This document shows, one piece after another, positions 16,242 to 34,291 of a stretch of 64,000 nucleotides of DNA. Under the pieces are notes generated by a model. The model ran no database searches and had not been told where the DNA came from. It was given only the letters and a program-made list of their open reading frames with translations. Source of the stretch: an uncultured bacterium (GTDB lineage: Bacteria > Verrucomicrobiota > Lentisphaeria > Victivallales > UBA1829); NCBI GenBank assembly GCA_902762495.1, contig CACWOL010000009.1, forward strand, positions 879-64,878, in the 5' to 3' direction. The first letter of the stretch is position 1, and each line of letters starts with the position of its first letter. A program made the translations under genes and the position numbers.

Positions 16242-17876
16242 TTATGCGAGGACGTGAATGATGCTCTGGTCGTTGATGCCGATTTCACTGTAGTTGACCC
16301 CGGCCGACCACCGGGACATGTCGCCGCCGGCATAGGCGCCCATCAACTCGGTCGAGATCTGGCGTACCAGCAGGTCGTCTTTGCCGTCGCCGTCGGAGTC
16401 GAATGCGCCCGCAATGTCCCAGTCGGAACCGTCGATCTGGCCGAGCGACGTCCACGCGTCGGCGTTTCCGTCCGCGAGCAGAACCACTGCGCCGGATTCC
16501 TTATGGAACAGCACGACGTCGTCCTTGCCGTCGCCCGCGAAATCGCCGACCGCGCCGAATTCCCAGCCGGACCAGTTCAGACCGCCCAGGCCCGTCAACG
16601 TGCCGTCCAGGTCGACCGAGTAGAAGAGCACGCCGGACAGCGACATCAGCACGGAGTCCTTTCCATCGCCGTCGAAGTCGCCGCATCCGAGCATCGTCCA
16701 GTTCGCGTCGAACCAGCCCGCGATTCCGGTCCAGTTGTCCGTGCCGTCCGTCCAGACGCCCAGCGCGCCGAGTTCCTGCGCGTGCCACACGACCGACGGT
16801 GCGCCTGAACCTGTCAGGTTTCCGGCGTTGTATTTCCAGTCGATGCCATCCGCGTTGATCAGCGTGCCGATCTTGCGCCAGCCGTCTGCCTGATAACTGA
16901 TTTCAATGCTTTTCATGATTCCTCTGGAATCCATGGTACTGATGGATTCCATCTGAACACCGCTTTCCGCGTTTCTCCAGAGCGTGGAAATCTGAATGTC
17001 GCTCTTCGGCAGGGGCAAGTGATCTCCCTGTGCCTGGAATTCCTTATATGCCGCGAAAGATTCCCCGTAGGACAGGTCGTCGATGGTCGGTTCCCTGTAT
17101 TGGGATTTCGGAATCAACCGGATAACGCCGCCGGGCAAAGTCTGGCGAAGAGCGACGATCTCGCATGAAAGGTCCAGCCAGTTTTCCCTGAGAAACGCGA
17201 GATTCTGCGAGATGGATGATTCCGGTATTTCCTCCTGAACCTTTGCTTTCGCACGATCATATAACGTACAGAACTGCCGGTACGTCATCTGGGAAATATC
17301 CGGGACAGCTTTGAACGGGGGAATGGAGACAAGGTCCTCAATCGGAACTATCAATTCCTCAGGTATCTTCAGGATAACATCTTCCTTAGAAATTATCAAA
17401 TACTCTGGTGTCTTCAGCAAATCGGGATTGATTTTCAGGACGACTCTTTCCTCCCCGTTTAGCGATACCGTAATGATTCCATCATCCATCGGCGGGATGA
17501 TCTCGGATTCAGGAATTGCTCCAATATAGTTTTTTGACCATGCCCCTCCATTCTGTTCGGTGTTGACAGTTCCGTTTTCCTCCGTGTCAGTGATACTCTC
17601 TTTCAGCATTTCAACAATCTCTGATTGTTCGTCTTCGCCGAAAGAAGACAGGAGACCGCGCAGAATATCATTGTATTCTTTTGATCCGGGTTCAACACGC
17701 CTCATTCCGTTATTGTTCATTACTTCTTCCAAGTCCAGCGATAACGTAATGATTCCATCATCCATCGGCGGGATGATCTCGGATTCAGGAATTGCTCCAA
17801 TATAGTTTTTTGACCATGCCCCTCCAACCCCTTCGGTGTTGATAATTTTGTTTTTCTCTTCGATGGTTTCGCTCAT
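16242..17876 (-). CDS. FG-GAP/VCBS-type repeat protein with internally duplicated N-terminal region; no obvious signal peptide
   Basis: The C-terminal third has three GDFDGDGKDSVL / GDFAGDGKDDVVL / FDSDGDGKDDLLV Ca-binding FG-GAP-like repeats. The N-terminal segment GGAWSKNYIGAIPESEIIPPMDDGIIT occurs twice. Confidence 0.75.
   Translation of the reverse strand: MSETIEEKNKIINTEGVGGAWSKNYIGAIPESEIIPPMDDGIITLSLDLEEVMNNNGMRRVEPGSKEYNDILRGLLSSFGEDEQSEIVEMLKESITDTEENGTVNTEQNGGAWSKNYIGAIPESEIIPPMDDGIITVSLNGEERVVLKINPDLLKTPEYLIISKEDVILKIPEELIVPIEDLVSIPPFKAVPDISQMTYRQFCTLYDRAKAKVQEEIPESSISQNLAFLRENWLDLSCEIVALRQTLPGGVIRLIPKSQYREPTIDDLSYGESFAAYKEFQAQGDHLPLPKSDIQISTLWRNAESGVQMESISTMDSRGIMKSIEISYQADGWRKIGTLINADGIDWKYNAGNLTGSGAPSVVWHAQELGALGVWTDGTDNWTGIAGWFDANWTMLGCGDFDGDGKDSVLMSLSGVLFYSVDLDGTLTGLGGLNWSGWEFGAVGDFAGDGKDDVVLFHKESGAVVLLADGNADAWTSLGQIDGSDWDIAGAFDSDGDGKDDLLVRQISTELMGAYAGGDMSRWSAGVNYSEIGINDQSIIHVLA
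17461..17550. repeat. 90-bp intragenic direct repeat, copy 1
   Basis: Identical to 17737-17826 except for one base (c/a at repeat position 8). The offset is 276 bp, so it is in frame. Confidence 0.95.
17737..17826. repeat. 90-bp intragenic direct repeat, copy 2
   Basis: See copy 1. Weaker similarity continues about 20 nt further (ttcggtgttga). Confidence 0.95.
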
Positions 17877-24617: not shown

Positions 24618-25527
24618 GGCCGGCCTCCGTTCCGTGGTCGTGAGTATGATCGTGCGCGTGGTCGTGGCCGCAGGAACATCCGTGCGCGCCGTCGATATGG
24701 CAATGGTCGTGCAGATGCAGGTGTTCATTGCGGAGCGGACAGTTTTCGGGGCATTCGCGCACGTCCTGCGGGATGCCGTGCAGGTCGGGGAGACCGAGGT
24801 GCAGGCCGAACGTTTCGGACAGCACCTGATGGGTCAGCGCCACGCGCGGCTCGCCCTCGCCGAACACCGTATGGTTCAGGCAGATCACATGGTCGGCGTG
24901 CGCGGTCACGGTCGCCAGGTCGTGGCTGATCATGATCTGCGTGAATCCGCGTTTTTCGCGGACGCGCCGCAGGAGTTCGCAGCAAATCTGCCCGCCCTTG
25001 AAGTCGACCCCGGAGGTCGGTTCGTCCAGGATCAGGATGTCCGGTTCCTGAAGCAGCGCCTGCGCGAGCAGGACGCGCTGAATCTCGCCGCCGGAGAGCG
25101 CGCCGAACGTATGGTCGGCCAGAGCGGTGCATTCCACTTCGTCCAAATACTGCATGATGCGTTTCACATGGCGTTTGGAGTGTCCCAGGAAGAGCGGCAT
25201 GCGCTGAAGCCCGGAGAGCAGGTAGTCCATGACGGTCATCGGGATGTCGCGGTCGAACACCAGCCGCTGCGGCACGAATCCGAACCGAGGCTTCCGTCCG
25301 GCTTCGTCAAGTCCGGGAAACAGCACCTTGCCGGCATGTTTGATCTGGCCGAGAATCGCGAGCGTGAGCGTGGTCTTGCCCGCGCCGTTCGGGCCGACGA
25401 TGGCCGTGAACTTGCCGCGCGGGACGTGCGCGCAAACGTCGTCCAGGATGCGGTTTTCACCGAGGGTCAGGCCGACGTGTTCGAAACGGACCGCATCGGC
25501 AGGTGCTGTTTCCGAGGGGGAGATCAT
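24607..25527 (-). CDS. metal ABC transporter ATP-binding protein (ZnuC-like) with His/Cys-rich C-terminal tail
   Basis: Walker A GPNGAGKTT, signature LSGGEIQR and Walker B ILILDEP. A 48-aa tail follows: CPENCP...HLHLHDHCHIDGAHGCSCGHDHAHDHTHDHG. Confidence 0.9.
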   Translation of the reverse strand: MISPSETAPADAVRFEHVGLTLGENRILDDVCAHVPRGKFTAIVGPNGAGKTTLTLAILGQIKHAGKVLFPGLDEAGRKPRFGFVPQRLVFDRDIPMTVMDYLLSGLQRMPLFLGHSKRHVKRIMQYLDEVECTALADHTFGALSGGEIQRVLLAQALLQEPDILILDEPTSGVDFKGGQICCELLRRVREKRGFTQIMISHDLATVTAHADHVICLNHTVFGEGEPRVALTHQVLSETFGLHLGLPDLHGIPQDVRECPENCPLRNEHLHLHDHCHIDGAHGCSCGHDHAHDHTHDHGTEAGHAE

Positions 25528-26546
25528 TCGACAAGCGCCTTTTTCATGATTTCGAGGTTATTGTGCATCACATCGAAATAATATCCGGCGGGCGGGTCGG
25601 CGGGGCCGGACGCCACCGGGTCGATCTTCACGACGGCGGCTCCGGTCTCCTTGCCGATGAGCTTGGCGAGTTCGTCCGGGTACTGCGGCTCCGTGAAGAT
25701 GACCTTCACGCCGTGCTCCTTGAATTCTTTCGTCATGGCCGTGATCTCGGCGGGCGAGGGGGGCGTTTCGGGATCGGCGAAGATTGCGAGCGGCGTCTCG
25801 AATCCGCAGTCGCGCAGGAGGTAATCGAAGACGTTGTGCTGGGCGGCGACGTGCTTGGACGAGTACGGTTCGAGCTGCGCCTTGAACTCGTCGCCGAGGA
25901 TTTGGAGACGTTTGTCGAGCTTGGCTGCGTTTTCACGGAACTTGTTCGCGTGGAGAATGTCGGCCTTCGCGAGTTCATCGGTGATCGTCGCGACGATCTT
26001 CCGCGCCTCGTACGGGCTGGCGAAGAAATGGCCGTTCTCGCCGTCGTGATGGTGGTGATGATGGCCTTCCTCCTCGTGTTCGTCGTGGTCGTCCTCGCCT
26101 TCGTGCTCTTCGTCGTGATCGTCTTCGGCATCGTGGTCATGGTCGTCGTCATCGTCGCCGATCACTTCGATCCCTGCGCCAGTGTCGATCACCACGATGC
26201 CTTTGCCCGCACTCAAAGCCGCCTTGCAGATGTGGTCGTCGAGGCCCGCGCCGTTCTTGAACAGCATGAGCGGCTTGCGGGCGGCGGAGACCTTCATAAG
26301 GTCGTTCGGGGTCAGGACGTAGTCGTGGGGGCATCCGGCGTCCGGCGGGGTCAGAAGTTCGACCTCGATCCCGGTCCCATCTGCGACTTCCCGGGTCAGC
26401 ACCCAGATCGGGTACGTGGTCGCGGCGACGCCGTAGCCTTCCGAGGACGTGGTATGTACCGCCGATGTGATCTTTCCGGGCAGGAAGTACAGGACGGCGC
26501 ACAGCGCGATGAGCGCGAGCAGAAAACTGATGGTAAAAAATTTCAT
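25524..26546 (-). CDS. metal ABC transporter substrate-binding protein (ZnuA-like) with long His/Asp/Glu-rich loop
   Basis: Cluster-9 SBP-like sequence with the loop DDDDDHDHDAEDDHDEEHEGEDDHDEHEEEGHHHHHH (nt 26028-26159). The ATG at 26546 has an AGGAG RBS. Confidence 0.88.
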   Translation of the reverse strand: MKFFTISFLLALIALCAVLYFLPGKITSAVHTTSSEGYGVAATTYPIWVLTREVADGTGIEVELLTPPDAGCPHDYVLTPNDLMKVSAARKPLMLFKNGAGLDDHICKAALSAGKGIVVIDTGAGIEVIGDDDDDHDHDAEDDHDEEHEGEDDHDEHEEEGHHHHHHDGENGHFFASPYEARKIVATITDELAKADILHANKFRENAAKLDKRLQILGDEFKAQLEPYSSKHVAAQHNVFDYLLRDCGFETPLAIFADPETPPSPAEITAMTKEFKEHGVKVIFTEPQYPDELAKLIGKETGAAVVKIDPVASGPADPPAGYYFDVMHNNLEIMKKALVE

Positions 26547-26576
26547 AAACTCTCCTTGAAGCAAAAGCAGTCAAAT

Positions 26577-26662: not shown

Positions 26663-29008
26663 TTAAGCGGAGGGAGCGGTCTGTTCAGAATGACCCTTGT
26701 CATTCTGCTGTTTGATGAGCTTTTGGACTTTCTCCAGGTTCTCCTTGCCGAATTCGTCGTCAGGCGCGATGGTCAGCAGATGCTTGCACTGTTCCTCCGC
26801 CTGCATGTATCTCTCGCCGGCGATGCTGTTTTCGATGACGTGGTGCATGCAGTCGGTCCAAAGATCGACGATGTCCTCGCGGTAGTTCACGGCGTGACGC
26901 GGGAACTTGAGGGCATCGACAGCTTCCTGATAACGTTCCGCCTCGGACAGGCGTTTGGCGTAGATGAACGCCGGGAGCATGGATTTCTTTTCCATGTCGA
27001 ACGCCTCCTTCGCGGCTTCGAGCGCGTGCTTTTCGTCACCTTTTGCATGATAGAGTTCGGAAAGGTTCACGAGGATCAGAGCGGGCGCCTTGTATGTCTT
27101 CAAGAGCACTTTGTATTTCGCCTCCGCCTCTTCAATCATGTCGGCTTCGGAAAGCTTGTTTGCCGCATAGAACGTAAAGTCCGGATTGTCGTTCGGGGTG
27201 GTCGCGAGCAGTTTCAGCGCCTCCTGGTTCTTCGCTTCGTCATCCTCCAGCAGCAGCGCTGCCGCGCGGAAGAAATCCGCAAAGGGCTTCAGCTTGTCAT
27301 CTGCGGCGTCCGCGAGTTTGTCCGCCAGGGACAGCAGATCGGTGCGGCGTTCATACCGCCAGCAGAAAGTGAAGTAATCGGCAAGCAGGTCCAAATCGAA
27401 TTCCGACTGTTCCACGAGACGGCGGAAAATCTCCGCCGCTTCGTCGTGGTGCCCCAGCTGGTCCAGTGCGACCATGTGCAGAAAATCCAGTCTGGAGGCA
27501 TTGCCGTCGCTATTTTCCCTGACCTGTTCGATGATGGCAAGCGCCTGTTCCGCCTTGCCGTTGAAGATCAGATATTCGGCGGCGATTTGCTGCAGGAGCA
27601 CATCGTCGGGGAACTGTTTCAGCCCATCCAGCAGCTCCGCCTCCGTCGCCAGTCCTTTTTTGTACTGGGAGGACAGAATGATCTCCGTGAGAAGCTGGTT
27701 GCCCTGCAGATTGGTCGCCAGGACTTTCGCCAGTTCGGCCATTTGCGTGGGGTCTTTTTGATTTTCCGGCTTCTGCATCTGTGCGGAAAGATAGTCCAGG
27801 CAGGCAAGGACAGCGCGGTTGCTCAGGTCATGGAACGGAGGATTGGAGAAGAGTTCATTCGCCACGATTAGAATCTCGTTGTATGACCCCTGATTCATCG
27901 CCACGCGCAGACGCATGAACCGGGAAAGCGGGGTGGAAACGAGCTTGCCGGACTTGCGAACGTTCGCCGCGAGTTTCGTTTCGTTATTCTCCATGTAGGC
28001 GATCAGGACATCGCAGTAGTCGGCGAGGAGTCGCAGCGAGTCATTTTTCCGATGCAGTTTATTTGTCGCAGCCTTGAGCTTATCCGGTTTACTGGCAAAA
28101 ACGCAGCTTTCCGCATACAGCAGGGACATGTTGAGGTCGTCGATCGTCTTCAGATACGGCTCCGCTATGGCAACCAGATCGGAGAAACGGAATTTTGAAA
28201 AATAGAAATCCGCCAGAAGCGGCGTTCCCGCGAAATAATTGGTTTCCACGATTTGCTTCAGCAGTTTTTCCACCTCAGCATCGTTATCGTCCGCAATACT
28301 TGCACGGCTCATGACCGTATAAAGTGCCTCGAAACGGATCAGGGGGTCTTCCGATTTCATCGCACTGTTCAGAAAATTGTCGCGTTCTCCCTCGGACAAC
28401 GAACCGTAGTTTGCCATGAACTCCGCCATCCGTCCCAGTTCGTTCTTGTGGAACGCCTCGGGATCGACTTCCACCGCTTTCTTGTAAGCTTCTTCGCCGT
28501 CTTTCGGGTAGCCGGAACGGTAGGAGGAGATCACATACAGATACAGCTCATGGTCGGAAAGCTTTTCATTGATTTTCACCTTTCGCCCCAGAATGTCGCG
28601 CAGAAGAGAATAACTCGCGGCTTTCTCTGCGCTGGTCAGCATCTTTTCGCGGTATTCTTCATTCAATGGGTTCAACGAACTGGCGGTCTGCCACATCTGC
28701 GCCTCGCGCCCCGTATTGCCGAATTCATGATAGATGTTCGCCAGAGCGACGAATTCCGGCTCGCTGTTCTGGTCTTTCGCGACATACTGCCGCAGAAGGC
28801 GCTCCGCCTTTTCGTAATCCCCTTTTTCGTATGCAGCCATGGCTTCACGGCGCATCTGCGACCGGTGAAACGTCTTTACCCCGAAATAGCCAAGTGCCAG
28901 CAGACATGCCAGAAGTACAATGCCCAGAACGATGATCGCGACCACTTTCCGTAGTGCAACCGGTTTCTTTTCCACTTTTGCGGCCTGGCGGTCTGCTTTC
29001 TGTTCCAT
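26663..29008 (-). CDS. N-terminally membrane-anchored TPR-repeat protein, paralog 1 (781 aa)
   Basis: One TM helix (VVAIIVLGIVLLACLLALGYFG) followed by TPR-like helical repeats throughout. It is colinear with the 30667-32988 product; for example RYMQAEEQCKHLL is identical in both. Confidence 0.8.
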   Translation of the reverse strand: MEQKADRQAAKVEKKPVALRKVVAIIVLGIVLLACLLALGYFGVKTFHRSQMRREAMAAYEKGDYEKAERLLRQYVAKDQNSEPEFVALANIYHEFGNTGREAQMWQTASSLNPLNEEYREKMLTSAEKAASYSLLRDILGRKVKINEKLSDHELYLYVISSYRSGYPKDGEEAYKKAVEVDPEAFHKNELGRMAEFMANYGSLSEGERDNFLNSAMKSEDPLIRFEALYTVMSRASIADDNDAEVEKLLKQIVETNYFAGTPLLADFYFSKFRFSDLVAIAEPYLKTIDDLNMSLLYAESCVFASKPDKLKAATNKLHRKNDSLRLLADYCDVLIAYMENNETKLAANVRKSGKLVSTPLSRFMRLRVAMNQGSYNEILIVANELFSNPPFHDLSNRAVLACLDYLSAQMQKPENQKDPTQMAELAKVLATNLQGNQLLTEIILSSQYKKGLATEAELLDGLKQFPDDVLLQQIAAEYLIFNGKAEQALAIIEQVRENSDGNASRLDFLHMVALDQLGHHDEAAEIFRRLVEQSEFDLDLLADYFTFCWRYERRTDLLSLADKLADAADDKLKPFADFFRAAALLLEDDEAKNQEALKLLATTPNDNPDFTFYAANKLSEADMIEEAEAKYKVLLKTYKAPALILVNLSELYHAKGDEKHALEAAKEAFDMEKKSMLPAFIYAKRLSEAERYQEAVDALKFPRHAVNYREDIVDLWTDCMHHVIENSIAGERYMQAEEQCKHLLTIAPDDEFGKENLEKVQKLIKQQNDKGHSEQTAPSA

Positions 29009-29100
29009 CTTGTTTCCCGTTGTTTTCTCTTCTTTGGGGTTTCGAAAATGACAAAAAACGATATTCCGCCCTGGGGCGCGGACCGATATCGCCCGGTGTT

Positions 29101-29137
29101 TTTGAAAACCGACCGTTCATCTTGGAACGGTCGGCTT
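29101..29137 (-). terminator. rho-independent terminator after cargo gene 1
   Basis: The minus strand has a perfect 10-bp stem CCGACCGTTC caagat GAACGGTCGG followed by TTTTCAAAA. Confidence 0.7.
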
Positions 29138-29200
29138 TCCATTGTTCTGAAATCTTCGCTCCGGAAAAAGCTTCCGGGGCGGAGAGATATGTTCAAATCG

Positions 29201-29851
29201 TCAGGCCTTGACCTGCTTGCGGTTGCGGTACATCACAAATGCGCCGCCGAATGCGAGGGCGATGAGGAGCGTGGTGACCGGAGCCGGGAGCGGCTGACCC
29301 TGTTGGGGCAGGGGATCGGACGGAACAGGTGCGAATGTAACGACTGCCGTAAGCTTGGGGTTTTTTTCACCGCCATAAAAATAGGTAAAGGTGTATTTGT
29401 CTGTCTGTCTCCAAAGCCCTTGGGATGAGGAAAACGACGATTCATTCGTAAAATACTTATTCTTCCCGGTTCTTGTATCGGTGATCCAAAGGCCAAGGTC
29501 CTGACTGATCGTTATTTCTCTGGAGCCCTCGTTGCCTTCCAAAACCCACCATTTACCATCAGTGTCTGCGTCCCGACTGGTCACGGATGGCAAAAACTGA
29601 TTGTCGACACCATCGGTCACGGTATAAAGGGAAAGTTTTGGTTGTACATAGTTACTGATAAAGTTATCAAGTACTGTAATCTTCCAGGAAACGTTCCACG
29701 TTTTTGTTTTGCCTGTTCCGTTGTTATCATCGTCGTAGTCATGATCAAAGGCGCTCTGTTCCGCATCCTGATCCCACCAGGTTACGCCGGCGAAAGCGCT
29801 TGCCGACAGGCAGAAGAGTGCTGCGATAATAAGAAGATTGCGAAGTTTCAT
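29201..29851 (-). CDS. secreted protein with C-terminal QPLPA + TM + basic tripartite (PEP-CTERM/VPLPA-CTERM-like) tail
   Basis: Signal peptide MKLRNLLIIAALFCLSASAFA. Tail GQPLPAPVTTLLIALAFGGAFVMYRNRKQVKA-stop. The ATG at 29851 has an AGGAA RBS, and the coding sequence is AT-richer than its neighbours. Confidence 0.75.
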   Translation of the reverse strand: MKLRNLLIIAALFCLSASAFAGVTWWDQDAEQSAFDHDYDDDNNGTGKTKTWNVSWKITVLDNFISNYVQPKLSLYTVTDGVDNQFLPSVTSRDADTDGKWWVLEGNEGSREITISQDLGLWITDTRTGKNKYFTNESSFSSSQGLWRQTDKYTFTYFYGGEKNPKLTAVVTFAPVPSDPLPQQGQPLPAPVTTLLIALAFGGAFVMYRNRKQVKA

Positions 29852-30042
29852 TGTAAATTTCCTTGCGTGTGTTTGTTTGGCGGATCGTCCGCCGTGCTTC
29901 CGGTCTTGTTTTGTGTTTTGTTGGGAGTTTCCCGGAAGCGGGTTTCGGGGCATTCGATTGTTTGGAATCCGGCCCGCGGCGCCCCGTCGGCCGCGGCCGC
30001 AGAATCCCGGCGTCAAGGAGTCAATACGCCGGGTATCCCGCC

Positions 30043-30510
30043 TCATTCCCGCTGACAGAATAAATCTGGTCCAGGGGAGATCGTGTGAATGGTGCTAGGC
30101 GGATACAAATACGAAATCTGCATGCGGAGGAGACGCGTCGTGAGAATGAGTGCATTCTCCGCTTGTTGTTCAGTTTGCGCCGAACGGCGGCCGTTCCGGA
30201 GTTTCCGGGCGAGTCCGAACGCCGCGCCGAGGAGAAGGGAGATCAGTACGCCGGGGAGCGGCTGCCCGTGAACGGTGCTGATGCCGAGTTCGCGGTGCAG
30301 GAATTCCGAAGCGGCGGACTTGATAGAGCGGGTGAAGAGGAACAGCGGAGCGGCGGCTTCATCCTGTACGGTGGATTCCGTCTCGACAGCTTCTGCGGAC
30401 ACGGCGTATTCGCCCGCCTTGGACGCGTCGAACGCATCCACGGCGAGGGTCTCGAATGAGAAACCCGCCGCGAGCAGGAAGATCGCCAGAATTGTCAGAA
30501 GCTGTTTCAT
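30043..30510 (-). CDS. small signal-peptide protein carrying the same QPLPG + TM + basic motif internally, followed by a 46-aa tail
   Basis: Signal peptide MKQLLTILAIFLLAAGFSFETLA. The motif GQPLPGVLISLLLGAAFGLARKLRNGRR is at aa 83-110 (nt 30184-30267). The ATG at 30510 has a GGAGAA RBS. Confidence 0.6.
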   Translation of the reverse strand: MKQLLTILAIFLLAAGFSFETLAVDAFDASKAGEYAVSAEAVETESTVQDEAAAPLFLFTRSIKSAASEFLHRELGISTVHGQPLPGVLISLLLGAAFGLARKLRNGRRSAQTEQQAENALILTTRLLRMQISYLYPPSTIHTISPGPDLFCQRE

Positions 30511-30547
30511 CAAGCCTTGTTCTCCGTTTCAAATGGTTATTTTAAAT

Positions 30548-30576
30548 AACATACACCCATGTATGGCATTTTTCAA
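30548..30576 (-). promoter_or_regulatory. sigma70-type promoter (TTGAAA-N17-TATGTT) for the small motif-bearing ORF
   Basis: The minus strand reads TTGAAA aatgccatacatgggtg TATGTT, within an AT-rich intergenic region. Confidence 0.45.
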
Positions 30577-30666
30577 GTTTTATTTATGAATAAATAAGTT
30601 TTTTTCTGAAAAATGCACTTCACAAGGCAGAGGGTGTTTTATGGACGGCTGCTCCTACGAAAGATT

Positions 30667-32988
30667 CTATTGTGCGGAGCCGGCAGGTTGCGGCGATTCA
30701 TTCCGCTTTTCCGAGCTTCGCGCCCCGACTCTTTTCCGGGCTTTTTCCCTGCTTTCTATGGCAAAAGCATCGTCCGGTGCGAAGATGAGCAGATGTTTGC
30801 ACTGCTCTTCCGCCTGCATGTATCTCTGGTTGGCGAGGCTGTCTTCGATGGCGTGGTGCATGATATCCGTCCAGAGATTCATGACTTCTTCCGGCAGCTC
30901 GACTTTGTGGTTCGGAATCCTGAGGACTTTTTCCGCATCCTGATATTGTCCGTTAGCCGCGAGCATTTGCGCATAGACGAACTGGGCGATCCCGTCGTCA
31001 TGATTTGTTTCCCACGCCTGTTTCGCGTAGGAAAGGGCTTCATCCTTCTTTCCTTTCGCCATCTTGAGTCCGGCAATATTGGCCAGGATCACACGCTGGT
31101 CGGGATGTCTGCCGACCAGCGCGAGGTAGCGGGAAAGCGCCTGATCCACCTTGCCGCAGGTGCTGAACTTATCTGCCGCATGAAGCTCGAAGTCCGGCTG
31201 GTCCGTCTTTGACGTTTCGAGCAGAGAAAGCGCTTCCTCCGTCTTTCCCTGAAGGAACATTTCCTCCGCCCGGAAGAACGGAGCCAGCGCCTTCAGGTCC
31301 GGTTCCTTTGATGCATCCAGTCTGTCAGCCATCTTGGTCAGTTCCTCCCCGCGTTTATGGTCAATGCAGAACATGAGATAACGATAGAGGAGCCCCCGGT
31401 TCATTTCGTTGTTCTCGACCAAGGCGGTATATTCTTTCGTCGCCTCGTCGATCTTTCCCGTAAGCTCCAGCGCGAGCATGTGCAGAAGGTCGAATGTGTT
31501 TGAACGTGGATTCTCTTCCAGCTGATAGAACCGTTCAACATAATCGAGGCACTGTTCCGGATTGCCGTTGAAAAGCTCGAATTCGGCAGCGACTTCCAAA
31601 AGATACGGATCGTTCGGAAACGCCTCCAGGTTTTCCTGAAGGTCCTGCCGGGTCAGCACATTCCGTTTGCGCATGTCGGAGATCTTGAGGCGCATCAGGA
31701 AAGGATCCTCGACGCCTGGCCCCGCAAGGAGTTGCACAAGTTTTGCCACCCGCGGGTCATCGGCGAGCGCCGGATTCTCATTGATCTTATCCCAAAGATA
31801 CTGACGGACCGCTAGCCGAGCCCGCTCCTGTATGTTGTTAAAAGGAGGCTTCTTCATGATCGTTTCGAAAGTCGTGCAAGTCTTCTCCCAGGAGTCGTTG
31901 TTGAGCGCGATCTGGAGACTGATCAGATTGGCGAGGTTCGTTTGTACGACGTCGCGCGTCTCCTGCATGTGTTTGGCGAGATCGTCGTTCTTCTCCAGCC
32001 CCTGCGTGAAATCGTACAGCGCATCGAAATAGGATGCCAGGATCCTGTGCCTCAGCCCGAGTGTATGGAACTTTTGGGCAAGCGGTTTCAGTTTCTCCGG
32101 CTGCGCGCCGTATACGCAGCTCTCAGCATAAACAAGCGCCAGCTGAATATGAGGGATGTCCGCCAGAAAGGGTTCGGCGGTCTCGATCACGGAATCGAAT
32201 TTCAGCCGGGAAAAATAAAAGCTCGCCAGAAGCGGAGTCGCGACAAAACGGTTCAGCTCGACCGCCTGTTTCAGCAGCGTTTCTTCCTGTTCATTGACGG
32301 ACTCCGTATTCCCGCCGGACAATTCCAAACTGATGAGACGCTGGAGAATGGATTCCAGACGGACGACGGGATCGTCCGACTTCATACCCTGTTCAAAAAT
32401 CTTTGAGCGTTCGTCGGCGGAGCGATTCGCGTAAGTAACAAGAAGCTCCGTAAAACGACCGAGATCGTCTTTCTGGAAAAACTTCGGATCCGCCTTGTGG
32501 ATACGTTCATAGTATTTTTCCGCTTCCCGGGCGTGGTCCGTCATGACCGCGCTGATGAGGTACAGCATTATTTCCCGCGGAGTCTGTTTCGCATTCAAGG
32601 CGGACTTGCGGTTGAAGGAAGAATAAAAATGGGAGAATTCACGGGCGTTCATGGCGCAGGTCGTGTAGCTGTCCCAGTACTCCGGCTTCAGCGGATTCAG
32701 CGTGCTTGCCTTGTACCAGCACAGCATCTCCTCCCCCGTGTTGCCGAAATGATGGCAGACCTGCGCCAGGCGGACGAAATCCTCCTCGCTGTCGGGATCC
32801 CTGGCGACATATTCATTCAATAGCCTTTCCGCTTTCTTCCAGTCTTCCGCCGCAAACGCTTTCCGCGCTTCCGAGCGCAAATGGCTCCGGCGCATCGTCT
32901 TGATCCCGAAATACCCCAGGAATCCGAGGCACGAGAGCAGAACGACCGATATCAGGACAATAACAAGAATGAGTCTGGTCTTTTTCAT
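30667..32988 (-). CDS. N-terminally membrane-anchored TPR-repeat protein, paralog 2 (773 aa)
   Basis: TM helix LILVIVLISVVLLSCLGFLGYFG plus TPR-like repeats. Colinear with paralog 1; nt 30787-30827 match 26774-26814 at 37/41 positions. Confidence 0.8.
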   Translation of the reverse strand: MKKTRLILVIVLISVVLLSCLGFLGYFGIKTMRRSHLRSEARKAFAAEDWKKAERLLNEYVARDPDSEEDFVRLAQVCHHFGNTGEEMLCWYKASTLNPLKPEYWDSYTTCAMNAREFSHFYSSFNRKSALNAKQTPREIMLYLISAVMTDHAREAEKYYERIHKADPKFFQKDDLGRFTELLVTYANRSADERSKIFEQGMKSDDPVVRLESILQRLISLELSGGNTESVNEQEETLLKQAVELNRFVATPLLASFYFSRLKFDSVIETAEPFLADIPHIQLALVYAESCVYGAQPEKLKPLAQKFHTLGLRHRILASYFDALYDFTQGLEKNDDLAKHMQETRDVVQTNLANLISLQIALNNDSWEKTCTTFETIMKKPPFNNIQERARLAVRQYLWDKINENPALADDPRVAKLVQLLAGPGVEDPFLMRLKISDMRKRNVLTRQDLQENLEAFPNDPYLLEVAAEFELFNGNPEQCLDYVERFYQLEENPRSNTFDLLHMLALELTGKIDEATKEYTALVENNEMNRGLLYRYLMFCIDHKRGEELTKMADRLDASKEPDLKALAPFFRAEEMFLQGKTEEALSLLETSKTDQPDFELHAADKFSTCGKVDQALSRYLALVGRHPDQRVILANIAGLKMAKGKKDEALSYAKQAWETNHDDGIAQFVYAQMLAANGQYQDAEKVLRIPNHKVELPEEVMNLWTDIMHHAIEDSLANQRYMQAEEQCKHLLIFAPDDAFAIESREKARKRVGARSSEKRNESPQPAGSAQ

Positions 32989-33047
32989 TTTTTTCCCGGG
33001 GCGGCATCGTGAAGGCTACTTCGCGATGCATGGTTGTATTATAGTTC

Positions 33048-33080
33048 AAAAAAAGCCCCGGTCAGTTTCCCAACCGGGGC
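33048..33080 (-). terminator. rho-independent terminator after cargo gene 2
   Basis: The minus strand reads GCCCCGGT tgggaaactg ACCGGGGC followed by TTTTTTT. A TATAAT hexamer follows immediately. Confidence 0.8.
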
Positions 33081-33127
33081 GGATTTCATGGATGACTGTT
33101 CGAAAGAACACGATCCTCGTGAATAGC

Positions 33128-33970
33128 TCAGGCAACAGCGGATTTCCTGCGGCGGATGTACCAGAACCCGAGTCCGAAGAGTCCGGCGATCAGAGCGATC
33201 TGAACTCCGCCGGGGAGCGGGGAACCGGCAGCGCCGGCCGTGACCTCTTTCAATGTGCCATATACATAAGTACCGTTACCATTGGTACCAACAATCCCGA
33301 AATTTAACTTGTTCCCAATATAAAGGGAACCGACCAGCAATTCGTTTTTAGTTGCATTGGCTCTCAATAATTCATAGTTTAAGGTATCTGTTTCGTTGAT
33401 GTTGCTGTTATGCTGTCCATTAACCTCGTACGAAGTAGTGCTCTTTTCAGTGCCGGCAATCGGTTTTCCGTCTGCGTCAACTTCCACTGCCTTCAAGTAA
33501 ACCTGGATTTCATCTCCGGCGGTGAACTCGCCAAGATAATAGCCTTTGCGGGAGAGAGGAGTCTCGCCCCACCAAGCATAGGTCTGCATATTGGGATCCG
33601 AAGAAGAAGCCCCCAGATCAACGATATGATCGCTATCGGTCATTGAGAAGCTTTGTAAACCATCTTTCGCAGACTTATACCCGAAGTCTGTGACTTTGAC
33701 GCTAACTCCAGTTTTTTTGTTCGTTATCACATCATCCAGCACTTCACTCTGAACCTGATAAGCGCTATCGAAATAATTCGTGAGATAAATCTTGCCTTTT
33801 TCATCTTCATCTCCGGTAACCTTAATCGTGAAGTATTTGCCAGCAGTACCATCAAAGACGCCAGGAGTATTTTCGTACCCTCGCCATTGAAGTTCAAAAT
33901 TGAAATCGGCAAACACGGGAGCGGCTACGCCGAGGAGGGCGGCGGTGAGGATGGGGAGAATGTGTTTCAT
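33128..33970 (-). CDS. secreted protein with C-terminal SPLPG + TM + basic tripartite tail
   Basis: Signal peptide MKHILPILTAALLGVAAPVFA. Tail GSPLPGGVQIALIAGLFGLGFWYIRRRKSAVA-stop. The ATG at 33970 has an AGGAA RBS, and the coding sequence is AT-rich. Confidence 0.75.
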   Translation of the reverse strand: MKHILPILTAALLGVAAPVFADFNFELQWRGYENTPGVFDGTAGKYFTIKVTGDEDEKGKIYLTNYFDSAYQVQSEVLDDVITNKKTGVSVKVTDFGYKSAKDGLQSFSMTDSDHIVDLGASSSDPNMQTYAWWGETPLSRKGYYLGEFTAGDEIQVYLKAVEVDADGKPIAGTEKSTTSYEVNGQHNSNINETDTLNYELLRANATKNELLVGSLYIGNKLNFGIVGTNGNGTYVYGTLKEVTAGAAGSPLPGGVQIALIAGLFGLGFWYIRRRKSAVA

Positions 33971-34065
33971 GTGTTCCTGTCTCGTTTCTGTCCGGCTGTT
34001 CAAGGCCGGACGGTTGTAAGTTATTCCGCTCTTAGAACGTCCAGGGATAATCTAATTTGTAAACA

Positions 34066-34093
34066 AATATAGCACATCGAATCGTTTTTTCAA
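34066..34093 (-). promoter_or_regulatory. sigma70-type promoter (TTGAAA-N16-TATATT) preceded by phased A-tracts
   Basis: The minus strand reads TTGAAA aaacgattcgatgtgc TATATT tg. Upstream, TTGAAAAAA recurs three times with a ~10-11 bp period (plus-strand T-tracts at 34085, 34095, 34107, 34116). Confidence 0.55.
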
Positions 34094-34291
34094 GTTTTTT
34101 CAACTATTTTTTCAATTTTTTTTGAGAAAAAAGGTTTTTTCTTAGTGGATAAATGTCTTTGTGTGAAAAGTAATTAAGCTCAAACCATGAGAGCGGTGAT
34201 GGTTTTGCAAGCTCAATTGTTTTTTTATCTTTTCCGCCGTCCGAAAGACTAACTCGGAATGCGCCGGATGCCGTCTTTTCCGGAATGACGC

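Follow-up and report, generated by a model that had tools for sequence, protein, structure and literature searches.

The DNA considered here is a window of 64,000 nucleotides (the whole stretch analysed; contig CACWOL010000009.1 of assembly GCA_902762495.1) from an uncultured bacterium of the Victivallales (Lentisphaeria), and the subject is a locus on its minus strand, 26663-34093. There, genes whose exported products carry a short Pro-containing motif, a hydrophobic helix and a basic cluster (cargoA, cargoB and a small open reading frame, ORF) are interspersed with genes for two large tetratricopeptide repeat (TPR) proteins. An ORF check of the window recovers all five minus-strand ORFs where a preliminary description of this DNA had placed them, in the order cargoA, TPR2, small ORF, cargoB and TPR1, and their start codons are consistent with those of orthologues in relatives. 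The arrangement is not a matter of chance, and recurs in every related genome examined. Tentatively, the locus may be viewed as two copies of a self-contained two-gene envelope module together with a small accessory membrane protein. Its features are as follows.

34066..34093, minus strand: promoter-like site of cargoA, TTGAAA-16-TATATT with TG
33128..33970, minus strand: cargoA, an ORF of 280 aa, with signal peptide, replaceable ectodomain, Gly-rich linker and constant tail
33908-33970, minus strand: cargoA signal peptide, MKHILPILTAALLGVAAPVFA
~33232-33935, minus strand: cargoA ectodomain cassette, bounded by breaks in DNA homology
33128-33226, minus strand: cargoA tail, GSPLPGG-VQIALIAGLFGLGFWYI-RRRK-SAVA
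33055..33080, minus strand: hairpin/intrinsic terminator between cargoA and TPR2, GCCCCGGTTGGGAAACTGACCGGGGC then T7, with an 11-bp stem
30667..32988, minus strand: TPR2, 773 aa, cognate partner of tail A
within 30667..32988, minus strand: N-terminal hydrophobic segment of TPR2, MKKTR-LILVIVLISVVLLSCLGFLGYFGI, a signal-anchor or lipoprotein signal peptide
30548..30576, minus strand: promoter-like site of the small ORF, TTGAAA-17-TATGTT, conserved in relatives
30043..30510, minus strand: small bitopic protein, 155 aa from ATG, accompanying class-B modules only
29852..30042, minus strand: GC-rich leader between small ORF and cargoB, conserved, with two predicted hairpins
29201..29851, minus strand: cargoB, an ORF of 216 aa, with signal peptide MKLRNLLIIAALFCLSASAFA
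~29294-29812, minus strand: cargoB ectodomain, replaceable, bounded by breaks in DNA homology
29201-29299, minus strand: cargoB tail, GQPLPAP-VTTLLIALAFGGAFVMY-RNRK-QVKA
29109..29134, minus strand: terminator-like hairpin after cargoB, CCGACCGTTC..GAACGGTCGG then TTTT
26663..29008, minus strand: TPR1, 781 aa, N-terminal segment ..IVLGIVLLACLLALGYFG, cognate partner of tail B

Anatomy of the locus

The three tail strings quoted in the preliminary description, of the form G(Q/S)PLP plus helix plus Arg/Lys, are exact, though only the two cargo proteins end in them (with four residues after the basic cluster) and the small ORF holds its copy internally, with 44 residues beyond. In a six-frame scan of the whole window, the cargo genes are the only two to encode such a tail at the extreme C-terminus. 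A consensus scan recovered both of the TTGAAA-type promoters that had been proposed (34093-34066 and 30576-30548), cargoB being, as supposed, without a detected promoter of its own. Both terminators are likewise in place, the one after cargoA strong, the one after cargoB a hairpin followed by TTTT on the coding strand. A comparison of GC and of GC at third codon positions (GC3) bears out the higher AT content of the cargo genes relative to their surroundings: at 33-34 kb GC is 0.48, versus ~0.62 outside the locus, and GC3 is 0.52-0.57 in the cargo genes versus ~0.85 in housekeeping genes. The whole locus is AT-richer than the remaining window, the cargo genes most of all.

The two TPR proteins are indeed colinear paralogs that share RYMQAEEQCKHLL, with 37% identity over their full length (E = 1e-178), and a DNA block of 154 nt near the 3′ ends of their genes (26725-26878 versus 30738-30891) is 75% identical. 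The term ‘tandemly duplicated’ is accurate for the window, but the duplication is ancient, both paralogs having been kept across the clade, and elsewhere the unit is also found single, in triplicate or at other chromosomal sites.

Pairing of cargo and TPR genes

The association of cargo with TPR gene was approached from both sides. A TPR alignment scan of one genome per GTDB species yielded 18 loci from ~13 metagenome-assembled genomes (MAGs), several of which carry 2-3 TPR loci, and in 17 of the 18 a tail-bearing ORF lies directly 5′ of the TPR gene, so that the adjacency expected of homologues in other genomes is conserved. The sole exception (L015) has lost the tail-bearing ORF and kept the intergenic hairpin. 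Conversely, when metagenome contigs were scanned with tail patterns and loci with at least 500 nt of downstream sequence were counted, a TPR homologue was found to start 130-340 nt downstream in 27/27. The proposal that each cargo is paired with a dedicated TPR partner is confirmed and strengthened by both counts.

In every case the class of the tail is also the class of the TPR protein. Class A tails, G.PLPGG..IALIAGLFGLGFWY.RRRKxxxA, go with a TPR2-type partner whose membrane segment is LLACLG[FA]LGYFG, across a gap of ~135 nt; class B tails, G.PLPAPVVTLLIALGFGAA.VMYRNRK..A, go with a TPR1-type partner with the membrane segment LLACLLACGYFG, across a gap of 210-340 nt. Pairing is both obligate and specific to class. 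Each genome has 2-4 modules, and these occupy at least five unrelated genomic contexts in which cargo and TPR are the only genes in common: between Memo/AMMECR1 and ZnuABC, as in the window; after a pyridoxal phosphate-dependent (PLP-dependent) enzyme and beside a hybrid histidine kinase and a MacB-like ABC transporter; after a tRNA-synthetase-like gene, with a Sel1-repeat membrane protein following; as a tandem pair (L014); and after a PMT-type glycosyltransferase (L057).

Homologues of TPR and cargo are all from rumen or gut metagenomes and from MAGs labelled Lentisphaeria or Victivallales. The cargoA family comprises >160 clusters, every one from Lentisphaeria metagenomes, and each TPR class >150 clusters at 90% identity, none of these with a functional name; copies of the cargo at NCBI are called ‘hypothetical protein’ by its annotation pipeline, PGAP. 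The module is conserved, restricted to rumen Victivallales (Lentisphaeria) and previously undescribed. Module-bearing contigs also occur in two Firmicutes MAGs, L009 (uncultured Ruminococcus sp. RUG12874) and P0262 (Lachnospiraceae bacterium), assignments that most likely reflect binning contamination because the distribution is otherwise exclusively Victivallales.

Module copy number varies among strains (L023 5520-8958, L014 1896-8775, L001 13163-14772). In L023, from a strain 96-97% identical to the window, a third cargo plus TPR module has been inserted; in L014 the tandem pair is of class-A modules; and in L001 one TPR1 is preceded by two cargoB genes.

The exchangeable ectodomain

Averaged over all pairs of 77 cargoA-family members, the tails are 81% identical, the signal peptides 66% and the mature parts 29%; the TPR partners of these members average 66%. 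At the DNA level the transitions are abrupt. Between the window and five relatives, homology in cargoA ends at 33936, some 12 codons into the signal peptide, and returns at ~33231, where the tail starts; in cargoB it ends at ~29813 (29788-29817 depending on the relative) and returns at 29293. L023 and the window are 96-97% identical in the flanks and the TPR2 gene (97% at the nucleotide level for TPR2), while the cargoA ectodomain of L023 has no DNA similarity to that of the window and 39% amino-acid identity to it, so that TPR function cannot depend on the ectodomain. In L001, B-type ends enclose an A-type ectodomain. Together the two cases imply free exchange of the ectodomain, with the TPR remaining linked to the tail. 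Relatives have one or two cargoB genes with unrelated ectodomains.

The TPR1 allele of the window is itself unusually divergent (26663-29008 versus L023 10701-12035). Its nearest non-self relative has 71% amino-acid identity, though the allele is present at 100% identity in public assemblies. Against L023 its nucleotide identity is 68%, where the adjacent TPR2 has 97%, and so exchange between strains also involves TPR1, either alone or as part of the cargoB-TPR1 unit.

An AlphaFold2 model of cargoA, built with the family alignment, has a confidently predicted β-sandwich ectodomain (pLDDT, the per-residue confidence score, 88.6; pTM, its counterpart for the overall fold, 0.80), then a Gly-rich linker modelled with low confidence and a C-terminal helix (residues 255-279). 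When the model was compared with PDB and BFVD by Foldseek, no match passed E < 0.001 or TM-score > 0.25; a profile search of PDB sequences was empty, and none of the 77 members has a Pfam, NCBIfam or PDB sequence match. An exhaustive phmmer search with the ectodomain on its own, run as a ‘choice-of-anchor’ test for its occurrence on different anchors, retrieved only 6 relatives among 1.84 billion cluster representatives, all of them family members with PLP-type tails. As modelled, the ectodomain appears to be an orphan fold, a β-sandwich without detectable relatives. A resemblance of the cargo motif YYLGEFxAGDE to DUF4114-like domains was considered and dropped, there being no Pfam match in the 77 members.

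The variability probably reflects diversifying selection, which phages or other external agents may exert. A diversity-generating retroelement or phase variation was considered as its source and rejected: the whole ectodomain is replaced, there is no nearby reverse transcriptase or invertase, and there are no silent cassettes.

The TPR proteins

TPR2 is modelled by AlphaFold2 as an uninterrupted α-solenoid of ~42 helices, with residues 2-762 all helical (pLDDT 89.6) and no enzymatic, barrel or other domain, and its structural matches in PDB are generic long TPR scaffolds. For the five proteins together, Pfam, NCBIfam, PADLOC and PHROGs gave generic TPR matches only; those from PADLOC (E = 0.001-0.006) stand alone and point to no known anti-phage system, and PHROGs had no match for any of the five.

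Comparison with characterized TPR proteins is of some pertinence. Slam, which combines TPRs with a β-barrel, is likewise encoded beside hypervariable exported cargo (TbpB, fHbp), but the match to TPR_Slam is 22.2 bits, below the cutoff of 35.2, the module TPR is all-α without a barrel, and its cargo is not a lipoprotein and has a C-terminal transmembrane (TM) helix. LapB (YciM) and LpoA are N-terminally membrane-attached TPR scaffolds with one defined partner, as is proposed here, but only the TPR repeats are in common, the module proteins having no rubredoxin or other domains and the partner being a hypervariable type-I protein.

Intergenic hairpins and expression

The terminator of cargoA has a 23-nt core, CCCCGGTTGGRAAACYGACCGGG, that occurs once per class-A module (51 matches in 49 loci), including once in the window, in L001 (9913-9935) and in the cargo-less L015 (9914-9936). 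It is the sequence itself that is fixed, with no compensatory changes, in modules whose proteins have fallen to 55-60% identity, the TPR proteins to as little as 55%. Such invariance suggests that, besides terminating transcription, the element is recognised sequence-specifically by a protein or RNase, or acts in recombination. A second, semi-conserved hairpin, GCATCGGGAAG...CGATGC (window 32990-33040; columns 110-137 of alignment A6), stands just 5′ of the TPR start codon in class-A modules, and may control TPR translation or be a site of RNA processing. A candidate promoter for TPR2 inside the terminator (33065-33038) was rejected, as it is not conserved in relatives. From the order strong promoter, cargo, terminator and TPR, abundant cargo would be expected, with less TPR made by read-through.

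The small protein and the leader of cargoB

The small ORF is present only 5′ of class-B modules. Its predicted product has a signal peptide, an acidic periplasmic part of ~60 aa, then GQPLPG, a short TM helix and RKLRNGRR (the PLP motif segment being at residues ~84-111 of 155), and last the 44-aa cytoplasmic extension. This ends in the near-invariant HTISPGPDLFCQRE, the most conserved part of the protein. An RNA element behind the extreme 3′ conservation was considered and rejected: differences between orthologues fall on third codon positions, and for that reason the ORF is taken to encode a real protein whose 44 residues are conserved as protein. The region 34118-34258, 5′ of cargoA, resembles the one that precedes the small ORF in relatives.

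Between the small ORF and cargoB, the leader of ~190 nt (29852-30042) is conserved in 8 loci, with few compensatory changes in its two predicted hairpins. Rfam has no match to it, and nothing above threshold in 26-35 kb. It could be an attenuator that couples expression of the small ORF and cargoB.

A possible mechanism

The reading preferred here, though with a confidence that falls a little short of even, is of a dedicated two-partner membrane module in which a constant tail both anchors the cargo and docks it on its cognate TPR scaffold, and the ectodomain is a recombinationally replaceable cassette. The cargo would be exported via Sec with a cleavable signal peptide and become a type-I membrane protein, its β-sandwich ectodomain of ~220 aa held on a short Gly-rich tether, a single C-terminal helix crossing the inner membrane and ~8 residues (RRRKxxxA) remaining in the cytoplasm. 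The tail would be retained, and would serve not as a general sorting tag but as a docking element in physical contact with the TPR protein encoded just downstream. The latter, an all-α scaffold of ~740 aa, would be attached to the membrane, and its N-terminal membrane segment varies in step with the class of the cargo tail. Ectodomains would be swapped across strains and slots by recombination at two points, inside the signal-peptide codons and at the tail, with the tail left TPR-linked. With its own strong promoter and a gene closed by the invariant terminator hairpin, the cargo would be the major subunit, and the TPR protein, made at a lower level through read-through, an accessory factor. 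It is possible, if on balance doubtful, that this extends to a self-contained exosortase-independent system in which the tail docks a swappable ectodomain to its cognate TPR one to one, the hairpin sets the expression ratio, and the cell thereby varies an exposed protein under pressure from phages or competitors.

For the N-terminus of the TPR proteins, the single TM helix of the preliminary description fits, but a lipoprotein signal-peptide pattern fits equally well, the lipobox VLL[SA]C being present in 60/64 family members, with GYFG, invariant among these members, located after the lipobox Cys.

Several points weigh against the docking module as formulated. The lipobox Cys is replaced by Ser in 2/64 members, both apparently intact, and the flank that follows the TPR hydrophobic segment carries a charge of +5 or +6 versus +3 at the N-terminus. 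Given these two features, the lipobox fit and the position of GYFG after the Cys, three topologies are all possible: a lipoprotein or a signal-anchored protein (both periplasmic), or an N-out/C-in protein with a cytoplasmic TPR domain. A periplasmic location is rather probable and a cytoplasmic one the lesser, though appreciable, prospect. Further, the two membrane segments could owe their co-variation by class to common ancestry and not to contact. The tail also has the exact plan of an exosortase signal, with a Gly-rich linker, then PxP at the outer membrane boundary, and RRRK beyond. Finally, a periplasmic domain tethered to the inner membrane is an odd target for diversifying selection, and hypervariability is easier to explain for an ectodomain at the cell surface, which would need release from the inner membrane.

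The tail and sorting signals

The alternative that fares best, unlikely as it is, takes up these last points: the tail would be a PEP-CTERM-like sorting signal, an unlinked exosortase-family or intramembrane enzyme would cut near PLP and pass the ectodomain to lipid, glycan or a surface polymer, and the TPR would be a class-specific PrsT-like adaptor. The tripartite tail (PxP, ~17 hydrophobic residues, and RRRK within 4 residues of the C-terminus) with its preceding Gly-rich linker is as expected, P251, L252, P253, G254 and G255 are invariant in the 77 cargoA-family members, glycosyltransferase and flippase genes adjoin the canonical locus, and surface display would account for the hypervariable ectodomain. 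The best NCBIfam match of TPR2 is PrsT (TIGR02917), at 60.1 bits (E = 1e-16, colinear over ~280 residues), though with a cutoff of 312.2 that is far from membership, and TPR1, at 30.6 bits, is lower still. PEP-CTERM/EpsH is known in the related phylum Verrucomicrobia (PMC4960237) of the Planctomycetes-Verrucomicrobia-Chlamydiae (PVC) superphylum, and A. muciniphila has 23 dispersed PEP-CTERM substrates (PMC4960237). Nothing specific on exosortase or PEP-CTERM in Lentisphaerae or Victivallales came up in the literature searched.

In the tests run, the idea of a cleaved exosortase-type signal, as first put forward, found no support; the label is unproven and several results weigh against it. The tails had been proposed for comparison with PEP-CTERM, VPLPA-CTERM and other C-terminal sorting models, and none reaches a cutoff. 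PEP-CTERM (TIGR02595, cutoff 16 bits) has no match on cargoA or cargoB and 7.4 bits (E = 9.2) on the small ORF, and matches 0/77 cargoA-family members at E <= 10. The other NCBIfam sorting domains (VPLPA-, IPTL-, GlyGly-, MYXO-, Loki- and Heimdall-CTERM, LPXTG) have none above cutoff either. The best on a cargo is Loki-CTERM on cargoB (11.1 bits, cutoff 19.9); LPXTG_anchor appears at E >= 1.1 in 4/77 members and Heimdall-CTERM at E = 0.15 in 1/77. That no curated model recognises the tail does agree with its having been called lineage-specific.

Enzymes and dispersed substrates are likewise missing. No exosortase, rhombosortase or sortase is encoded in the 64-kb window, as had been stated, the only polytopic membrane proteins there being ZnuB, a flippase-like protein and an M50 peptidase. 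Nor is there an exosortase in the neighbourhoods of 59 related loci (at least five contexts; whole MAGs were outside the scope), or, in the same neighbourhoods, a PrsK/PrsR pair conserved beside the module. The M50 peptidase, which lies 8 kb away, was considered as processing enzyme and rejected, being syntenic only at the canonical locus and absent in other contexts. In ~680 kb of related sequence, which is centred on modules, PxP-TM-basic tails number 70, every one at the extreme C-terminus of a G.PLP-type cargo gene, and hence none is outside a cargo-TPR module; no canonical PEP-CTERM tail was found elsewhere in that sequence, nor does it contain an exosortase. Such an occurrence, only beside TPR genes and at 2-4 per genome, is not that of dispersed substrates.

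The motif is also not a constant of the system. It is internal in the small ORF, and class-D cargos are without the tripartite tail. Class D comprises the first module of L020 and the modules of L057-L059 (L020 5000-5860, L057 7142-7909, L058 7292-7975, L059 7248-7847). Its cargos have a B-like signal peptide and a C-terminal TM helix, without PLP and without the Arg cluster (e.g. ...SSPLSTPLMMLLFMFAFYIIMVLATTVGIKLKD; end ..TTVGIKLKD), and its TPRs, 58-60% identical to TPR1, have the membrane segment LLVCG[YH]FG or LLTGWHVG, GYFG being missing in L058 and L059. Class D and the internal motif of the small ORF argue for a C-terminal membrane helix plus partner as the conserved feature, and not a cleavage motif.

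The comparison with PEP-CTERM/exosortase (EpsH) and PrsT is nonetheless close in plan: signal peptide, C-terminal PxP, TM helix and Arg-rich cluster, an associated large TPR protein that is possibly a lipoprotein, a PVC-superphylum host, and polysaccharide genes nearby at one site. The differences are that the module has PLP rather than PEP, no curated model at cutoff and no exosortase in the searched sequence; that PEP-CTERM has many dispersed substrates and one PrsT, where here each of 2-4 substrates per genome has an adjacent TPR gene; and that the module is without PrsK/PrsR, with the TM sequence itself conserved and some modules motif-less. By phylogenetic profile, PrsT matches PrsK and PrsR and is a single gene of a regulatory system, not a per-substrate partner (Haft 2006, PMC1569441). 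VPLPA-CTERM, IPTL-CTERM and PGF-CTERM are parallels in being lineage-specific motifs on the tripartite plan (VPLPA even contains PLP), but no module matches their models at E <= 10, and those families are defined by a co-occurring dedicated sortase-like enzyme, of which none was found at the modules.

Less likely readings: a cytoplasmic clamp or a surface subunit

Improbable, but of relevance to topology, is a cytoplasmic TPR clamp, N-out anchored as LapB, that would bind free C-terminal peptides in PEX5/Hop-like manner and so cluster a variable periplasmic receptor, e.g. for signalling or phage DNA exclusion. Candidate ligands are …RRRKSAVA-COOH and …RNRKQVKA-COOH of the cargos and …PGPDLFCQRE-COOH of the small protein. 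The positive-inside rule favours C-in in all classes (K30, R33, R34, R38 and R42 versus MKKTR), the last 4-8 cargo residues are class-specific and conserved, the small protein is most conserved at its cytoplasmic C-terminus, and the TPR solenoid is without other domain. However, an N-terminus with three positive charges is unfavourable to translocate, the lipobox fit with its 97%-conserved Cys argues for export, there is no output, enzyme or DNA-binding domain, and PADLOC and PHROGs contributed nothing.

That the cargo is a polymerising or shed surface subunit (pilin- or S-layer-like), with ends for assembly, an antigenically variable middle and the TPR as assembly or export platform, is quite improbable, for although conserved ends, a variable middle and a strong promoter and terminator of its own resemble pilin and flagellin loci, and weak top PDB matches of the Ig-like β-sandwich include chaperone-usher pilins and cohesins, none of those structural matches is significant (TM-score below 0.25, E > 0.001), the module has no linked usher, secretin, ATPase or sortase, and the conserved signal-peptide part is the first 12 codons, merely outside the recombining cassette. 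Flagellin, type IV pilin and O-antigen loci are parallels in the replacement of a central segment between conserved flanks, with lower GC there and strain-level switching, but they are not homologous to the module, which has no linked machinery for polymerisation or secretion.

Neighbouring features

Adjoining TPR1 is a gene for a ZnuA-like zinc-binding protein (window 25524-26564, minus strand) with a long His/Asp/Glu-rich insert, DDDDDHDHDAEDDHDEEHEGEDDHDEHEEEGHHHHHH, and at the canonical locus the ZnuABC operon is conserved as the neighbour on the downstream side. In two relatives (L003 19268-21622, L058 13484-15832) a 780-aa, 10-TM protein with a weak match to Dpy19 (C-mannosyltransferase-like) is encoded 3′ of ZnuABC; a Dpy19-like protein is unusual in bacteria. 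Farther off in the window, 16242-17876 (minus strand) is a low-GC island (0.46 versus ~0.62) coding for a 544-aa protein with weak FG-GAP repeat matches, and was probably acquired horizontally.

Implications

The usual reading of C-terminal tails made of a motif, a helix and a basic cluster is that they mark proteins for a single sorting enzyme that serves the whole genome. In this module the same architecture invariably accompanies a private TPR partner, and the cassette that it flanks has been replaced even where strains are nearly identical. Should the tail be retained, the module would be a new type of construction for a variable envelope protein, and would warn against taking every PxP-TM-RRRK tail for that of an exosortase substrate. 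Should it be cleaved, TPR adaptors can be substrate-specific, and the PrsT-type proteins, long unexplained, would gain a role open to testing. In both cases, an abundant uncultured rumen lineage is seen to have two orphan families (the cargo ectodomain and the small bitopic protein) and a lineage-restricted TPR family, along with a sequence-invariant RNA or DNA hairpin and a clear marker of strain-level variation.

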